DNA from: Candidatus Latescibacterota bacterium
GTDB lineage: Bacteria; Latescibacterota; UBA2968; GCA-2709665
NCBI GenBank assembly: GCA_965208835.1
Contig: OZ242358.1
Span: forward strand, 2,112,001 to 2,176,000
Direction: 5' to 3'
Length of the DNA stretch: 64,000 nucleotides
Part shown: positions 6,730-64,000 of the stretch, one piece after another
Position numbering within the stretch: the first letter of the stretch is position 1
Layout: every line of letters begins with the position of its first letter
Position numbers and translations under genes: made by a program
Notes under the pieces: generated by a model
What the model saw: only the letters and a program-made list of their open reading frames with translations
What the model was told of the DNA's origin: nothing
Databases searched by the model: none

Positions 6730-7911
6730 TTAGAGTACCGGCAGGTCTTCGGGAGCGGGTTCGGAGAGGATCTCGAAGCCTCTATCCGTCACCACAACAT
6801 CCTCTTCGAGCATGAAATAGGCGCCTTCCGTGTAGAGAGAGGGTTCGACGGTGAGAACCATGCCTTCCTCCAGCAATGTGTCGTCTTCGAGTTCGATGAA
6901 GGGCGGTTCGATAATGTCGAGTCCGATGGCATGGCCGATCCCGGTGACGTGCCGCGCCTGCTCCGCGTAGCCCGCCCGCTTCAATGTCTCGTTCGAGACG
7001 CGAACCAGATCCGAAATCGGAATGCCGGGCCGGATCGTGCCGACCGCCGCTAGCAGGCATTCGTGGACGGTTCTGTACGCGTCTTTGTGTTTCTGAATAG
7101 CCCGTCCCAGCCCGAACATCCGAGTGTAGTCCGACCAGTATCCGCGGTACACGCCGCCGGCGTCGTGGGCGATGAGTTCTCCTTCGGTCAGCACGCGGTC
7201 GGTGTGTCGGCGCAGGCTTCGGTTGCTGCTGCGTGCATCCCCGGGGATGCACGTGGCCAGCGTGATCGAACCGGGCGCGTCCATTCCCCGTTTCAGGTGC
7301 TCCACACACAGCAGGCTATATAGATCTCTTTCTGTCATACCCGGTCTGACGGTGTCGAAAAGGGTGCGATAGGACCGATTGGTGATACTGACGGCCTCGC
7401 GGATGTAGTCGATCTCTGCGCTGGACTTGGTGAATCGGGTCTTCCAGAGCAACTGCGAGGCATCGGTGAATTCTACGCCTGGCAGATTGGATTTCAGCTG
7501 GCCGAAGTCGTCGTAGGGCATTCGCGACCAGAGTACGCCGCCCGATTCGGCGCCGACGCGGGCGCCAGGGCCGAGTTCGCGGATGACTTCTGTCAGAAGG
7601 GAAACCCCTGCCCGTACGCGGATGGGCGGTTGATACGTGCGCAGGTCTTCGATCCAGGCGTCCTCCTCGCACATCCCCGTTTCCAGCGGCGGGACGATGA
7701 GTACCGGGTCGCGTTCGAGCGGAAGCAGGGCGAACAGCGAGGTGAACTTGTGCCCCCAGCGATGCGTCCAGTGCCCGGTGAAGTAGCGATGGTTCGTGTC
7801 CGTGGTAATCAGGACCGCGTCCAGGCGGTCACGGGACATGAGATCCCGGAGCCCGGTCAGACGTCGTTCATATTCACAGGCATCGAAATCGGCGTACTGG
7901 CTGGTAAGCAC
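6730..7911 (-). CDS. M24 family Xaa-Pro peptidase / creatinase-like protein
   Basis: N-domain NHRYFTG; DAGGVYRGYWSDYTR, GHAIGLDIIEPP, TVEP, EEDV. Probable GTG start at 7911 after AAAGGGGA; the ORF-track extension to 8130 runs through a MITE. Confidence 0.88.
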   Translation of the reverse strand: MLTSQYADFDACEYERRLTGLRDLMSRDRLDAVLITTDTNHRYFTGHWTHRWGHKFTSLFALLPLERDPVLIVPPLETGMCEEDAWIEDLRTYQPPIRVRAGVSLLTEVIRELGPGARVGAESGGVLWSRMPYDDFGQLKSNLPGVEFTDASQLLWKTRFTKSSAEIDYIREAVSITNRSYRTLFDTVRPGMTERDLYSLLCVEHLKRGMDAPGSITLATCIPGDARSSNRSLRRHTDRVLTEGELIAHDAGGVYRGYWSDYTRMFGLGRAIQKHKDAYRTVHECLLAAVGTIRPGIPISDLVRVSNETLKRAGYAEQARHVTGIGHAIGLDIIEPPFIELEDDTLLEEGMVLTVEPSLYTEGAYFMLEEDVVVTDRGFEILSEPAPEDLPVL

Positions 7912-7934
7912 AACGGAATCCCCTTTTGATGTTG

Positions 7935-8096
7935 GAAGCTGTTTTAAAATTACCGGTGAGTTCCCGAGCGCGAGCGAAAAAGTGACGGTCAAGGCGGGAA
8001 AATCCGCCCATATTTGTCTATACGGGTGGGTTTGACCAACGCCGACCGGCGCTTTTGCAGCCGTGCGAAGACCGCTGGGAATTTTAAGACAGCTTC
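7935..8096. mobile_element. MITE family A, copy 1 (162 bp)
   Basis: TIRs GAAGCTGTTTTAAAATT / AATTTTAAGACAGCTTC; near-identical to 24900-25061 in inverted orientation; flanks TTG/TTA. Confidence 0.88.
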
Positions 8097-8204
8097 TTAG
8101 TCCGCTGGCGATTTGAAACGGCTGACGCACGCGCCGCAGGTGGGGGCGTGTGAATAAAGGTCTCGAATCGTGGTGGCGTTTAGCCGATGAATTGAGGTTG
8201 CCGG

Positions 8205-9053
8205 ATGCCGTTACAGGCTTTCATCCTGGTTTTGATCTCCACCGTCATGCATGCCGCGTGGAATTTCGCGGTTCGAAAAGCGTCCGGCAGTCTGGCGGTT
8301 CTGTGGGTGGGCAAGTGGTTCGCGGTGGCCCTGTGCCTTCCGGCCTTCTGCTATTTCCCCCTCGGCGCCGATGCGGTTGCGGCGGCATGGCCCTTTATCG
8401 CGGCTACGGGACTGGCCCATACGGTATATTTCCTGATGCTGGCCAAAGCATACGAAGAGGGGGAGATTTCGGTGGTGTACCCTCTCGCGCGGGGCACCGG
8501 CGTCGGAGGGACGGCGCTGGCGGCGTGGATTCTTATCGACGAGCAGCTTACGATGCCGGGTGTGGTGGGAATCGTGACCGTCGTGCTTGGAATTATCCTT
8601 CTTGGCGTCGCCGATTTGCGAACGCCGAAGAACCGCCGGTCCCTGGCGTACGCACTCTGTGTCGGCGTAACGATCGCAGTCTATTCCGTCGTGGACAAGC
8701 AGGGCGTATCGCATATTCATCCCGTGCATTACGTCTTTTCCCTTTTCCTTATTCCAGCGGTACTCCTGTCCCCCTACGTGCTCTTGCGACACCGGCCGTC
8801 AGTGGTCCGGACGTGGTGCGGACTCAAGAGATATGCGCTCTGGGCGGGGCCCGGTTCCATGGCGACGTATCTGCTCGTACTGTTTGCAATGCGCCTTGGC
8901 AAGGTCAGCTATATACTCGCCGTCAGGGAGTTCTCCGTGGTCATCGGCGCCGCCCTGGGTGTTCTCTTCCTGGGCGAGCGATTCGGATGGCACAAAGCCA
9001 CGGGGATTGCCGCGATTGTGCTGGGCCTGGCGCTGGTCAAGCTGGGCGGCTAG
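8205..9053 (+). CDS. EamA/DMT family transporter
   Basis: HAAWN, AYEEGEISVVYPLARG, YSVVDK, AVREFSVV, LGERF; about 10 TM segments. Confidence 0.9.
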   Translation: MPLQAFILVLISTVMHAAWNFAVRKASGSLAVLWVGKWFAVALCLPAFCYFPLGADAVAAAWPFIAATGLAHTVYFLMLAKAYEEGEISVVYPLARGTGVGGTALAAWILIDEQLTMPGVVGIVTVVLGIILLGVADLRTPKNRRSLAYALCVGVTIAVYSVVDKQGVSHIHPVHYVFSLFLIPAVLLSPYVLLRHRPSVVRTWCGLKRYALWAGPGSMATYLLVLFAMRLGKVSYILAVREFSVVIGAALGVLFLGERFGWHKATGIAAIVLGLALVKLGG

Positions 9054-9253
9054 GCTGCCGGGAAGCAGCAAAAACAGCTTCCAACGTCAGCGCCCTGACG
9101 AGGCGGCACCGGAACCGGCGCAGCAAGACAGGATGGATCAGCGTTCCAAGATAGCCGGAGGGAGAGGTAGGGTCAAGCGCTTATCTCCCGTGTGAGGATG
9201 CCCCTGGAACGGGAGATTTCGCTTTACAGGCAATCGGCCGCTCCGTATCATAA

Positions 9254-9413
9254 CAGTCCGTTGATAAAGTCGCTCTGCAGGCGAGGCCGAGCCATTATGG
9301 CCGAAGACAAGGCGCGCGACCGAGTCCCATCCTGCGATTCGGCGAGGGAGCGCAACGCAGTATTTCGACCGCAAGGGCCGGCCGTAGCCCGGATGGACTT
9401 TTTCAACGGGCTG
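9254..9413. mobile_element. MITE family B, copy 1 (160 bp)
   Basis: TIRs CAGTCCGTTGATAAAGTC / GACTTTTTCAACGGGCTG; 4-bp direct repeat ATAA on both sides; inverted near-copy at 53864-54023. Confidence 0.88.
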
Positions 9414-9480
9414 ATAAGGCGCCTTATTGTGACGATCCGACAACGCACGACGGCCTACCTGACCGGTGGTCGAAATCTCC

Positions 9481-12012
9481 ATGTCGAAAGACGCATTACA
9501 CGTTGTCCCTTTTTCCCGGCTCACACTCTTCGGATTGGGCGACAAAGAGGCGTGCCTGTCTCGCGCAGCGCAGGTCATCTCACAGGTCCTGCGCCTGGTG
9601 GAATCCAGGGAAGATTTCAGTTTCTCAATCGAGAACTCGGTCCATCTGAGCGCTTATCTCAGGTCGCATCCCGAGGCGGCGGCGCGGGTCCGGAAGGCGG
9701 TTTCCCGTGGGCGTCTGGAATTGGGGGCTGCCTGGACCCAGATGGATCACCGTCTGTCCGCCGACGAAGACCTGGTCCGAAATCTGCTCTACGGAAAGGC
9801 CTTCGCCCGCGAGGCGCTCGGCGTGGACCCGACAGTTGTGCATCTGGGTGACGGGGGAGGCACGACTTCGCAATACGTGCAGGCCGCCTTCAAGTGTGGA
9901 GTCAAGCATGTCGTAATCACCGGGACAGGATGGAAGCAGCCCGTTCTGTTCCGCTGGCAGGCGCCGGATGGCTCGCAGGTGATCTGCTGGAACGCAACCG
10001 GGGGAAGCGGGCTGCTCTGGGAAGCCGTTCGCGGAACGCCGCAGTCCAGGCGGCTCCGAAACGCGGAAATTGCACGTCAACGCGAGATGCACGAAGGGAG
10101 GTTGCCGCTGCATTGGGGCGGGCCGATGGTTCAGCCGTGCGAAACCGCCGTGGACGAGTTGCTGGAGTGGGCCGAGGACGAAGCGATCCGCATAAGGCTT
10201 GGGACGCCGTCGAGCGTCATCCCGAAGTCTCAATTGGAAGAGCGACTGCCGGAGGTCGACGCCGCGAATCCGCCCGGTGGATCGCATCTGGAACCGGTGT
10301 TCCCGGGAACCGCGCCCCTGAACGACCGGGCTGTCTGCGGGCTGTCGCGTGCAGAGCAGTTGTCGGCCATGGCGGAGAGTCTCGTTTCGTTCACCTATCC
10401 TCGTGCGGCCCTCGAATCGGCGTGGCTGCGGCAACTGGAGTCGACGTCGTACCGTTACGACGGCGTGGCTTCGGAGGAGGGACTGGAGTACAGGCGGACC
10501 GACCAGCAGAACGTGATTGCGACGGCGTCAGGGATCGTGTGCCAGGCTGAACGGATGATCGCGGAACGGGTGACGCCCCGCGACGGTCCGGACGGCAGGA
10601 TGCCCGTCGTGGTATTCAATCCGCTTTCGTGGACGCGTACCGGCCTGGCGGAAATCCATGTCACGTTTTACGGGGCGGTGGAAGGGACCGACTTTTCCCG
10701 GTACGAAACATATAAGCTGGTTGATGCTTCCGGTCGGACGGTGCCGTTCCAGGAACTGGCGGGCAGACAGACCGAGACCGCCGAAGTGCGTCTGATGTTT
10801 ATGGCTCGCCAGGTTCCGGCAAACGGATATGCGACCTATTATCTCGTTCCCGGCGTTACGGAAACGCAGCCGCTTGTGGGCATCCATCAGCCGGAGACGA
10901 TGGCGCCGGGGCTGATGGCGCCTGAATTCCCTGAGCCCAGCTTTGTACTGGAAGACGTCGAGGACCGCGTGTCCGAAGCATTCGGGAGCGTGCGGATCGG
11001 CCGCCGTTTCAGGACGGCTTCCGTCGACCTCGAAGTTGACGAAATAACCGGTCGCGTGCGCGTGTCGGACAGAAGCGCGGACGGTCCGCTGGTCGACGGA
11101 ATTCATCTCATTGGCACCGAGGAAGCCCTGACCGACCGATCCGCCGTCACCGGCAGGCGGTTCGAGATGGCGGTCGAACGCGTCGATCTCGAAGAGAGCG
11201 GCGAGGTGCGGGCGACGTTGCTCGTGGCCGGAAAGCTGTTGTCGTCTCCATGTGAGATCAGATACCGGGTTTACGGCGAACTGGACCGGGTGGACGTGGA
11301 TCTCCGGATCCAGTGGCAGGACCGGAATCCCGTTAGAGTGCAGATGGTCTTCCCGGTCGCCGCCGGCGCCATCCGGTATGGGACGCCTCACGGCCATCAG
11401 AAACTCGAGGAAGCCGGGGGTGGAAACGCCTCGCTCGAAGTGCAGCGGATCTGTCAGGGATGGGTGGCCGTGGATGGACCCGATCGCGGCTTCGTGATCG
11501 CATCGGACCGGAAGGCGTTTCAGTTCGGCGCCGGCGAAGTGCGCGGCGAGGTCCTGCATTCAGGGCTCGACCCTGCATCGTATTCCTATAACGTCATATG
11601 GCGCGGGTTTCCGGACGCGGTGACGAGTAGATATTCCATCCGGGCATATAACGGCGATTTCGCGCGGGGAAACGCCTTCCGGGACGGATGGGAACTCCGC
11701 CAGGCTTTGAACGCCAGGGTCGTGTATGACCTGGTTTCAGAGAAATCATTGCCGGATCGAATGCAGTTCATCAACCTCGAGGGCCCCGGGATTGTTTGTA
11801 CGGCAATTAAACAGGCGGAAGACGGCGAAGGACTGATCGTGCGGGCTTACGAGACCGTCGGCGGCACATGCGAAGCCCGGCTGGTCTCGTGCCGCAATGT
11901 CGTCTCGCTCCATGAAACGGACCTTATGGAACGCCGCGTTCGGGATCTGGACGTCGACGCCATCGCATTCACCCCCTTCGAAATCAAGACCCTTCGGGTT
12001 GTGTTGAACTGA
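9481..12012 (+). CDS. GH38 alpha-mannosidase-like protein with degenerate active site
   Basis: GRLELGAAW, EDLVRNLLYG, LFRWQAPDGS, VVFNPLSWTR, VPANGYATY, AIKQAEDGEGLIVRAYE, FTPFEIKTLR; the HxD and HD metal ligands are absent. Confidence 0.8.
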   Translation: MSKDALHVVPFSRLTLFGLGDKEACLSRAAQVISQVLRLVESREDFSFSIENSVHLSAYLRSHPEAAARVRKAVSRGRLELGAAWTQMDHRLSADEDLVRNLLYGKAFAREALGVDPTVVHLGDGGGTTSQYVQAAFKCGVKHVVITGTGWKQPVLFRWQAPDGSQVICWNATGGSGLLWEAVRGTPQSRRLRNAEIARQREMHEGRLPLHWGGPMVQPCETAVDELLEWAEDEAIRIRLGTPSSVIPKSQLEERLPEVDAANPPGGSHLEPVFPGTAPLNDRAVCGLSRAEQLSAMAESLVSFTYPRAALESAWLRQLESTSYRYDGVASEEGLEYRRTDQQNVIATASGIVCQAERMIAERVTPRDGPDGRMPVVVFNPLSWTRTGLAEIHVTFYGAVEGTDFSRYETYKLVDASGRTVPFQELAGRQTETAEVRLMFMARQVPANGYATYYLVPGVTETQPLVGIHQPETMAPGLMAPEFPEPSFVLEDVEDRVSEAFGSVRIGRRFRTASVDLEVDEITGRVRVSDRSADGPLVDGIHLIGTEEALTDRSAVTGRRFEMAVERVDLEESGEVRATLLVAGKLLSSPCEIRYRVYGELDRVDVDLRIQWQDRNPVRVQMVFPVAAGAIRYGTPHGHQKLEEAGGGNASLEVQRICQGWVAVDGPDRGFVIASDRKAFQFGAGEVRGEVLHSGLDPASYSYNVIWRGFPDAVTSRYSIRAYNGDFARGNAFRDGWELRQALNARVVYDLVSEKSLPDRMQFINLEGPGIVCTAIKQAEDGEGLIVRAYETVGGTCEARLVSCRNVVSLHETDLMERRVRDLDVDAIAFTPFEIKTLRVVLN

Positions 12013-62492: not shown

Positions 62493-62523
62493 AAAAGACA
62501 CGCCTGAATCAGCGTGTCTTTTC
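62493..62523 (-). terminator. Intrinsic (possibly bidirectional) terminator after the selenoprotein gene
   Basis: aaaagacacgc-N8-gcgtgtctttt. Confidence 0.8.
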
Positions 62524-62547: not shown

Positions 62548-63846
62548 TCAGGGTACGCTTTTGCCGAAGTTTCTTGCGAATTCCAGAAAGTCCGCGAAGT
62601 CGACCAGTCCGCTCCCGTCCAGGTCGAAGGTCGGGTTGTCGGAGTTGAAGGCCTGGGCGAAGGCAATGAAGTCGACGAAATCGATTTTCCCGTCACCATC
62701 GAAGTCGGCACGGGCATTGACGGAGACAACGATCGCCGTTCCGGAAATCGCGACCGTGACATTTTTGTTTTCCGGATCATCGCTGGAAATGGTAATGGTG
62801 CCGGAGAAAGGTCCCCCCACCGCGGGCGTGAAGGTGATATCGACGGTTGCACTGTCACCCGGCGCGACCGTAAGCTCCTCCAGGCTGAACGTGATGCCCT
62901 CGAGGTCGGACTCCAGGTTCGTGATGCTGAGGTCTTTCCCTCCTGTGTTTTTCACGACGAGGGTAAGGGTCCGGGACTCATTTACCGCAACGTGCCCGCC
63001 AAAGTCGAGTATTGTAACAGGTAAGTTGATTGTGGGCGGCTGCACGATGGCTGCGATTCCGGAAATCGAGACCGTGACATTTCCGTTTTCAGGGTCATCG
63101 CTTGAAATGGTAATCGTGCCGGAGAAAGGACCGCCCTCCGCGGGCGTGAAGGTGATATCGACGGTTGCGCTGTCACCCGGTGCGACCGTGAGCTCCGTCA
63201 GGCTGAACGTGACGCCCTCGAGGTCTGACGCCAGGTTCGTAATGCTGAGGTCTTCTCCACCGGTGTTCTTCACGACGAGGGTAACGGTCCTGGTTTCGCC
63301 GGCCGGAAGGTCCTCGCCGAAGTCGAGCGAGGTACTGGGAAGGTTGATCGCGGGAGGCGCGACGGCCAGCAACTCCCGGATTCTCGCCGCCGCGGCGCTG
63401 AGACCCGAAGCGCCGACCCCGATGTGACGGACGATCCCTTCCCGGTCCGCGACCAGCAAAGTGTGAGTACCCCGCGTCCTCTGAATCCCCCCAGCCTGCA
63501 ACAGCAGGGGAAATGTGATCGTTGTTGCGGCTCGAAAGCCTTCCAGTTGCGACTTGCTGCCATTATAAATATCAAGCCCCAGGACCGTTACGTCATCGTT
63601 CTGGAACGCCTTCCAGATCTGCTGCTCGATGGACGGACCCGCCGCCCGGCAGGTGGGTCAGTTGTGGCCCAGGTAATAGAGAACCAAAACTTCACCCTTG
63701 TAGTCGGCCGGACTGTGTTTGTTGCCGTTTAGATCTTCTAACGAGAAGGCGGGCACAGCGTCACCTTCTTTCTGGGCCTCCGCAGGCAACGGCAGGTTGA
63801 GTCCGACGAGCAGCAGGAACACAAGGCATGTGGCGATTCGACGCAT
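62548..63846 (-). CDS. Probable secreted selenoprotein: signal peptide + AhpC/TSA-redoxin domain (U-x-x-C) + two Ig-like (ASH/choice-of-anchor D-like) repeats + dockerin-like EF-hand pair, 432 aa
   Basis: AAGGAGG RBS; ORF 63658-63846 ends LGHN-TGA and continues in frame PTCRAAGPSIEQQIWKAFQNDDVTVLGLDI...TFPLLL into ORF 62548-63501 with no other stop. Confidence 0.85.
62741..63357 (-). repeat. Intragenic tandem duplication (period 318 bp, 106 aa)
   Basis: LDFG..TLVVKNTGG.DLSITNL.SDLEG.TFSL.ELTVAPGDSATVDITFTPA.GGPFSGTITISSDDPEN occurs twice. Confidence 0.92.
63622..63657 (-). promoter_or_regulatory. Candidate bacterial SECIS element
   Basis: 10 nt after UGA: stem GGGCGG/CCGUCC with loop CGGGU (loop begins 16 nt after UGA, G in second position); lower stem CUGC/GCAG. 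Confidence 0.65.
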
Positions 63847-64000
63847 TGAAATCCTCCTTTATGAGAGTTGCGGTTTGCGTCAGAAATGGGTCTTAAGACG
63901 CATTTCAAGTCCATTGAACGGCAACACCTGATAGCATGTTCCCGAAGTACATGCGGCGCCACCGCGCCTGCGTCCGGCGAAGACGAGGGCTTCGTATCGT

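Follow-up and report, generated by a model that had tools for sequence, protein, structure and literature searches.

A probable single gene divided by an in-frame TGA

The window analysed here is a stretch of 64,000 nucleotides (nt) from contig OZ242358.1 (positions 2,112,001 to 2,176,000 of the forward strand), and the locus of interest occupies its positions 62548-63846 on the reverse strand. Two open reading frames (ORFs) lie there: a 62-residue ORF (63658-63846), which closes at a TGA at 63660-63658, and a 317-residue ORF (62548-63501) in the same frame, with this TGA as the sole separator. When the TGA is translated as selenocysteine (Sec, U), a single product of 432 residues results, with Sec at position 63 (...VLVLYYLGHN-U63-PTC66-R...). 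The product consists of a signal peptide, a TlpA/ResA-like redoxin, two immunoglobulin-like (Ig-like) ‘choice-of-anchor D’ domains and a dockerin/EF-hand-like C-terminus. The whole gene comprises 432 codons and a terminal TGA stop at 62548-62550, and homologues have equal length and architecture.

An initial annotation of the locus had proposed that the two ORFs share one frame and encode a secreted selenoprotein. The coordinates and the translation agree with this, and the signal-peptide string and the segments VTVLGLD, TFPLL and LVADREGIVR to which it pointed are all found in the read-through product. It had also stated that only the upstream ATG carries a strong Shine-Dalgarno sequence, which direct reading bears out: AAGGAGG lies at 63853-63859, 6 nt ahead of the ATG at 63846-63844, and no Shine-Dalgarno motif stands ahead of the internal TTG at 63501.

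The predicted splitting of the gene by standard pipelines is seen in public protein sets, which hold only the piece that follows the TGA. In a collection of 5.8 billion clustered proteins, the best-matching entries are fragments that measure 240-512 residues and lack a redoxin domain. A search scored on residues 1-165, which reaches only relatives sharing exact words (lengths 238-758 residues), returned 7 proteins, each covering 22-47% of this region and thus the post-TGA stretch only. The codon for U63 (63658-63660) is identified by the sequence and its translation, by its conservation in homologues and by independent contigs, as described below. The internal TGA is almost certainly decoded as selenocysteine, the two ORFs being one gene, and 62548-63846 is very probably a genuine selenoprotein gene that public annotation has mis-split.

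Probable Sec63 at the first position of a CxxC motif

The redoxin domain spans residues 26-147 (63406-63771, reverse strand) and carries the motif U63-P-T-C66; its TlpA/ResA-like thioredoxin fold is recognised by Pfam, by alignment with Protein Data Bank (PDB) entries, by the structural model and by Foldseek. The Pfam family AhpC-TSA matches residues 28-121 at 48.4 bits (cut-off 26), and Redoxin matches residues 26-147 at 38 bits (cut-off 26.6). By sequence, the closest solved relatives are the Geobacter thioredoxin-family proteins 3hdc and 3kcm (E about 6e-10), followed by ResA and StoA; Sec63 aligns with the first Cys of the CPxC motif in both Geobacter structures. In the AlphaFold model, built with a 27-row alignment (mean pLDDT 89.6), U63 is placed at the N-terminal end of helix 64-78, after strand 53-59, and Foldseek superposes the domain on ResA (1su9) with a TM-score of 0.85 and an rmsd of 2.0. 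PDB alignment and model place Sec at the first-Cys position of CxxC in a thioredoxin fold, where the initial annotation had put it. P113, which is invariant in the alignment, probably lies in the conserved cis-Pro loop and would adopt the cis conformation.

The domain resembles Bacillus subtilis ResA and the TlpA/CcmG-type proteins (PDB 1su9 and 1st9; also 3hdc, 3kcm and 2ls5) in its fold, in the position of CxxC and in bearing an export signal. It differs from them in having Sec as the attacking residue, in its three additional domains and in a putative cleavable signal peptide in place of a membrane anchor. The NCBIfam models for ResA, StoA and TlpA all score below their cut-offs (38.3 vs 170, 27.3 vs 210 and 16.3 vs 230 bits); the protein is related to each of the three and is an orthologue of none. 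The NCBIfam models redoxin_TUGYCR (NF053656; 16 bits vs a cut-off of 100) and OS_HP2 (NF041425; 50.5 bits vs 100, E 2e-13) likewise fall short. Since these models remain sub-threshold, NCBI naming would not flag the protein as a selenoprotein.

The TGA is retained across homologues

A search with the read-through protein finds matches in all 41 genomes examined, including that of the window; for each of the 14 same-genus genomes, a single TGA interrupts the best match. Among 36 homologous genes extracted from 32 loci, 35 have a TGA at the same column, always in a U-x-x-C context and at 37-79% identity. The remaining homologue, from genome G018, has TGT at the Sec column, giving C-P-V-C. In solved Cys homologues the first Cys of CxxC aligns at this position, so the column holds either TGA or Cys, as the initial annotation had asked to be checked. 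The alignment retains 27 of the 36 rows, near-duplicates being left out, at 38-79% identity to the window protein. Across these rows the Sec/Cys column 63 and C66 are invariant, and conserved residues flank the TGA on both sides (F34, L36, V53 and G60 before it; P71, L89, D92, G96 and P113 after it). The homologues are built alike: a signal peptide precedes the redoxin, and one or two Ig-like domains lead to a dockerin-like tail. The retention of the TGA column across them exceeds what chance would produce and runs counter to a strain-specific nonsense mutation.

Maximum-likelihood analysis of the 36 redoxin domains nests the lone Cys form on a long branch within the Sec clade of family f1, the family of the window (support 92/88). 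This topology weakly suggests a change from Sec to Cys in the G018 lineage.

The redoxin domain alone yields matches at E<=1e-10 in 108 of 168 genomes of the phylum. By family, matches occur in 19/21 genomes of f1, 30/31 of f2, 2/3 of f3 and 52/76 of f4, as well as in 1/13 of f10, 2/6 of f12 and 1/1 of f13, and in no genome of seven other families. Of 150 phylum-wide matches listed, 143 contain exactly one TGA, one contains a TGA and a TAG, one a TAA, and five have no stop.

The TGA itself recurs in assembled contigs from three studies, which span the codon without a differing letter; one of them is near-identical to the window and may be its source. Another covering contig represents a relative of 97-98% similarity, and it differs at five nearby sites and not at the TGA.

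Several genomes hold more than one copy of the gene. In four same-genus genomes a second Sec-redoxin paralogue stands in tandem (locus L028, 2534-3508; L029, 2478-3509; L030, 280-1254; L036, 2523-3506), about 60% identical, with U-D/N-L-C instead of U-P-T-C. In the sister family, several genomes contain 3-5 Sec-redoxin copies, some of them within much longer ORFs.

Selenocysteine machinery of the genome

The genome of the window is a single contig of 5.18 Mb, 97.8% complete, and it encodes the full set of Sec genes for which the initial annotation had called. The genes selA (3538627-3539724, E 7e-145), selB (3536666-3538546, 361 bits vs a cut-off of 242) and the tRNA-Sec gene selC (3536434-3536527, 73.4 bits, anticodon TCA by ARAGORN) form one cluster, in which selB sits between the other two. 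The fourth gene, selD, lies at 4401300-4402223 on the forward strand (358.6 bits) and has an in-frame TGA of its own (...ARTCG-U-AAK...). All four exceed curated cut-offs.

In-frame TGA codons are also present in an FdhA-like molybdopterin oxidoreductase gene (C1:2633054-2634325, forward strand; ...CSRA-U-HAPTV...) and in a Prx-like AhpC/TSA gene (C1:433241-433627, forward strand; ...FRGTW-U...). The FdhA-, SelD- and Prx-type genes each have a hairpin of 6-7 base pairs (bp) that begins at nt 14-15, counted from the U of the UGA. A loose genome-wide scan for a TGA combined with a hairpin and open frames gave 317 matches and was uninformative.

TGA is also the commonest stop codon of this genome, ending 2090 of 3886 open frames of at least 300 codons, and it terminates the selenoprotein gene itself (62548-62550). 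The code is therefore not globally reassigned, and the recoding is local.

A SECIS-like hairpin follows the UGA

Immediately downstream of the UGA, a selenocysteine insertion sequence (SECIS)-like hairpin, GGGCGG / CGGGU / CCGUCC, occupies 63631-63647 of the reverse strand, nt 14-30 from the U of the UGA; it starts 10 nt past the codon, exactly where the initial annotation had located it. The ribosome covers the first 12 nt when the UGA occupies the A site, and these were held open in folding as an assumed footprint. Under this constraint, G23 falls in the apical loop above at least four stacked pairs in 25 of 30 distinct Sec-form sequences, compared with 127 of 3000 shuffles; in the Cys form it does not. 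Pairing at the four upper positions of the stem persists in 28-33 of 33 distinct rows, and three rows show flips from G-C to C-G; the named stem has a covariation score of 0.201, against 0.019-0.094 with slid partners. U24 of the loop comes from the codon of Gly70, for which 23 of 25 rows use GGT; ten further conserved Gly columns in the alignment have GGT in only 0-11 of 25-27 rows. The Cys form has Ala at column 70.

The geometry of the hairpin, with nt 14-19 paired to 25-30 and a CGGGU loop, matches that of the other Sec genes in the genome: FdhA pairs 15-21 with 27-33 (loop GGUCU), SelD 14-20 with 25-31 (GGUC) and Prx 14-19 with 24-29 (AGUU). Like these fdhF-type elements, it is a short hairpin about 11 nt past the UGA with G and U in an apical loop of 4-5 nt at nt 21-25, and the GGU(C) loop of FdhA lies at equal distance. 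In the GGUC loop of Escherichia coli fdhF, G23 and U24 form the contact with SelB. The redoxin element departs from the fdhF type in that its stem register shifts among homologues and, in the genus of the window, a competing 5' hairpin is stabler in isolation. Of the SECIS claimed by the initial annotation, place and shape stand, with comparative support, and thermodynamic support is missing. The expected hairpin with a G in its apical loop just 3' of the UGA thus appears to be present, on comparative rather than thermodynamic grounds.

Predicted export signal, Ig-like domains and dockerin-like tail

Residues 1-24 (63775-63846) have the features of a signal peptide, namely MRR, a hydrophobic core and AEA followed by Q. 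Homologues show an equivalent N-terminal pattern ending in A-x-A/Q, and the model contains a low-confidence helix at residues 3-15. The signal peptide would be cleavable and the product exported. A lipoprotein reading of I-A-T-C7 was rejected, the Cys lying just 7 residues from the start and not being conserved.

Two Ig-like domains of the choice-of-anchor D/DUF1573/ASH type follow the redoxin. Domain 1 covers residues 169-263 (63058-63342), as defined by Pfam, NCBIfam, the model and Foldseek, and domain 2 covers residues 271-369 (62740-63036), as defined by Pfam, NCBIfam, the model and the alignment. Pfam reports two HYDIN/VesB/DUF1573/ASH-type Ig-like domains together with EF-hand matches at the C-terminal end, the NCBIfam choice-of-anchor D model matches twice (95.7 bits vs a cut-off of 45), and Foldseek relates the pair to ASH/HYDIN/CEP192-type domains and to 2qsv. 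In the window gene (62740-63342) and in its orthologue in genome G006, the two domains are near-identical, and other same-genus homologues have one; the pair in these two genes is a recent internal duplication.

The C-terminal module, residues 372-432 (62551-62733), contains two D-x-D-x-D-G loops with a helix after each. Scanned alone, the last 70 residues match Dockerin_1 marginally (24.7 bits vs 22.9) and EF-hand_1 more clearly (35.6 vs 25.4). In the Pfam scan of the whole protein, the tail is listed only under EF-hand families, among the best 25 of 27 families (E up to 0.01). Such a tail is found at 81 places in the genome, this gene included, many of them in frames of 500-1800 codons; examples are C1:3599102-3599281, 5133327-5136950 (four in a row) and 4062544-4096726 (many), and several are clustered. 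Of four matches to cohesin-like domains in the genome, three are above the cut-off; such domains lie at C1:4917220-4917576, 628504-628827 and 4927615-4927971. Two ORFs of about 1600 codons combine cohesin-like domains with a dockerin-like module.

The module resembles a type I dockerin (PF00404) of cellulosomes in its two repeats of calcium loop plus helix at the extreme C-terminus. The genome resembles a cellulosomal system in having cohesin-like domains and in the sharing of the tail by many secreted proteins. The differences are the marginal score, the attachment of the module to a redox enzyme and the Gemmatimonadota origin of the genome. This Gemmatimonadota genome may thus encode a display system of the cohesin-dockerin type.

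Gene neighbourhood

The upstream neighbour on the same strand is a DUF6029 gene (7880-9487, reverse strand, of locus L057). Its last 121 bases are window positions 63880-64000; it extends beyond the window, and its stop lies 34 nt before the ATG at 63846. Ahead of it stands tlpA (L057 9444-10088, reverse strand), which encodes a 214-residue Cys-type redoxin with a C-K-P-C motif (AhpC-TSA, 84.8 bits). In all 30 loci examined from families f1 and f2, tlpA stands immediately ahead of DUF6029, and the Sec-redoxin, in its Cys form in G018, directly follows DUF6029 in 19 of the 30, which are all of the f1 loci.

The model of DUF6029 (pLDDT 68.7, pTM 0.67) is all-beta, with about two dozen long strands, a signal-peptide helix and a C-terminal Phe. 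Among known folds it comes closest to TonB-dependent transporters, PapC/FimD ushers and AlgE, at TM-scores of 0.3-0.5, and the protein is predicted to be a large outer-membrane beta-barrel. An invariant A-C-T-S-G-x-C-Y motif, with a C-x4-C pair (C513 and C518), lies near the C-terminal Phe. In the available text of PMC9603273, HHpred similarity to DUF6029 is described for Wzi-barrel homologues, for which a role in polysaccharide export is suggested.

A promoter-like TTGACA-18-TACAAT is found ahead of tlpA as the sole such site in 4.2 kb, where shuffles average 1.3, and is to be taken as a hint rather than a finding. Beyond the stop of the selenoprotein gene, a terminator-like hairpin was read directly at 62493-62522 of the reverse strand. 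It begins 25 nt past the stop and has an 11-bp stem (AAAAGACACGC/GCGTGTCTTTT) and an 8-nt loop; a consensus terminator scan, the rule of which requires a T run after the stem, misses it. The downstream genes are tilS, ftsH, folP and purM, the last three named from their translations.

Evaluation of alternative readings

The evidence as a whole points to an exported TlpA/ResA-type redoxin with a decoded Sec, which would be tethered and would act with TlpA and DUF6029 in the envelope; to this sequence-based explanation a probability of roughly 0.88 is assigned. Several observations weigh against it. The 64-nt stretch after the UGA is not more stable than shuffles (z -0.44; 59 of 200 equal or exceed it). 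Folded freely, it adopts at minimum energy the competing 5' hairpin, pairing nt 7-13 with 18-24, at -14.8 kcal/mol against -9.3 kcal/mol for the proposed one, and in unconstrained folds G23 reaches the apical loop in only 12 of 35 Sec forms. RNAalifold, applied to 35 ungapped post-UGA stretches, returned no consensus structure, a result of the varying stem register among homologues; an Rfam scan of 63400-63900 gave no SECIS family and two chance-level matches (E 5.6 and 9.1). No RNA run was among the sequencing runs listed for the sequence. The homologues are moreover kin, so that conservation counts overstate their independence, and in the f2 loci (11 of 30) no Sec-redoxin follows tlpA-DUF6029 within 1.5 kb. 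A functional link to tlpA-DUF6029 is therefore not general, as the f2 homologues are not adjacent. In the genus of the window, the competing hairpin occupies 63637-63654 of the reverse strand, and the ribosome would need to melt it; genus-level substitutions disrupt this hairpin and not the proposed one.

Were the TGA a true stop, the locus would be a pseudogene, or would encode two products, a peptide of 62 residues and a downstream protein with a start of its own. Gene callers treat the codon in this way, public sets hold just the downstream pieces, TGA is the commonest stop of the genome, and the hairpin is not thermodynamically exceptional. A nonsense mutation, however, would not persist as a single TGA in 143 of the 150 listed matches, nor would it keep to the position of the catalytic Cys in 35 of 36 homologues, which range down to 37% identity, with the protein conserved on both sides. 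The modelled thioredoxin fold would also be severed after strand 1, ahead of helix 1. No Shine-Dalgarno motif precedes the downstream TTG, and the genome contains complete Sec machinery; termination at this codon is very improbable. That an assembly or sequencing error turned TGC or TGT into TGA has nothing in its favour and a negligible probability: the contigs of three studies, one of them perhaps the source of the window, show no other letter at 63658-63660, the relative of 97-98% similarity varies at five nearby sites only, and the codon recurs in well over 100 other genomes.

A different question is whether the decoded enzyme is a peroxidase, with Sec as the peroxidatic residue of a peroxiredoxin-like protein, rather than a thiol-disulfide oxidoreductase. 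Sec is excellent in this role, as established for GPx and Sec-Prx. The top Pfam match is AhpC/TSA, NCBIfam adds weak matches to models such as thiol peroxidase and PrxQ, and the catalogued family bears the name ‘Prx-like’ in the available text of PMC13188914. The same text gives the peroxiredoxin signature as PxxxTxxC, with T or S three residues ahead of the active residue. This residue is not present here, where the translation and the 27-row alignment give G60-H-N-U63, and its absence favours thiol-disulfide exchange; the other TGA-containing AhpC/TSA gene of the genome has T-W-U. The UxxC motif with its invariant second Cys is as in TlpA and ResA, and the protein comes closest in sequence and fold to ResA, StoA and Geobacter thioredoxin-family proteins. 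A peroxidase is accordingly considered unlikely.

Proposed mechanism

On the preferred reading, that of an exported Sec-containing thiol-disulfide oxidoreductase, the ribosome would meet the UGA at 63660-63658 with the G+C-rich hairpin 10 nt downstream, presenting G22-G23-U24 in its apical loop. Judging from this anatomy and from comparison, the hairpin would recruit SelB with Sec-tRNA(Sec), and selenocysteine would be inserted. The product would then be exported by means of its cleavable signal peptide. Sec63, in place of the attacking Cys of CxxC, would attack a substrate disulfide or another oxidised sulfur or selenium species; resolution of the mixed selenylsulfide would fall to Cys66, and recycling of the enzyme to an upstream reductant, in keeping with the established chemistry of the family. 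The Ig-like choice-of-anchor D domains may serve as spacer or binding modules, and the dockerin-like calcium-binding module is probably an anchor that keeps the enzyme in the envelope or at the cell surface. As the third member of the cluster after tlpA and DUF6029, the gene would most likely take part with them in the maintenance of thiol redox state in the envelope.

A more specific arrangement can be envisaged, in which the dockerin-like tail docks on a cohesin-bearing scaffold outside the outer membrane. The selenoenzyme would there form the outer end of a trans-envelope thiol/selenol relay, and the periplasmic TlpA and the DUF6029 barrel would pass on reducing power or depend on it. This surface relay is doubtful. 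If true, it would represent an extracellular selenol redox catalyst in Gemmatimonadota, acting for example on environmental disulfides, polysulfides or oxidised metal or metalloid species.

Relation to known selenoproteins and significance

Redoxin selenoproteins with a UxxC motif are already catalogued, and the kind is known. The available texts of PMC13188914 and PMC1794560 (Zhang et al. 2006) describe a ‘Prx-like thiol:disulfide oxidoreductase’ family (PF00578, UxxC/UxxU); that of the former, a 2026 review, also names a ‘Redoxin family protein’ (PF08534, UxxC), a ‘UGC-containing TlpA’ family and a DUF1573 selenoprotein. As far as the Zhang/Gladyshev catalogues are available, the Prx-like and Redoxin families share with the present protein the Pfam models, the thioredoxin fold, Sec at the first position of UxxC, a SECIS within the ORF just past the UGA and the existence of Cys homologues. 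By their descriptions, the catalogued entries are plain redoxin-domain proteins, set apart from the present one with its two Ig-like domains and dockerin-like tail. They further differ from it with respect to the expansion in Gemmatimonadota and the tlpA-DUF6029 cluster in one family. The OS_HP2/DUF1573 selenoprotein (NF041425; ‘DUF1573 domain-containing protein, UGC’ in the available text of PMC13188914) is similar in its Ig-like domains (E 2e-13) and differs in that the score is below the cut-off and that Sec here lies in the redoxin rather than in the Ig-like domain.

A full-text literature search, judged by titles and abstracts, found no selenoproteome paper on Gemmatimonadota or Gemmatimonadetes. 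No description of a selenoprotein with a choice-of-anchor, DUF1573 or dockerin architecture was found in the literature, and catalogue supplements may list the family. The initial annotation had not recognised the domain combination as described; this holds for the architecture, the lineage and the gene cluster, which look undescribed, and not for the UxxC redoxin selenoprotein as such. Apparently new are the arrangement of domains, the family's expansion in this lineage and the tlpA–DUF6029–Sec-redoxin cluster. For the selenoprotein field, the finding extends the catalogue and offers a candidate new NCBIfam/Pfam architecture, without introducing a new principle.

In conclusion, a whole family of exported selenoproteins, present in 108 of the 168 sampled genomes of the phylum and often in several copies each, is invisible in current annotation. 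Public sets keep only a truncated ‘choice-of-anchor D’ fragment without the catalytic domain, and functional and selenium-use inferences for Gemmatimonadota are biased as a consequence. The combination of a redoxin with Ig-like spacers and a dockerin-like tail, the last shared by some 80 other loci of the genome of the window, suggests selenol chemistry in the cell envelope or at the cell surface of these bacteria.

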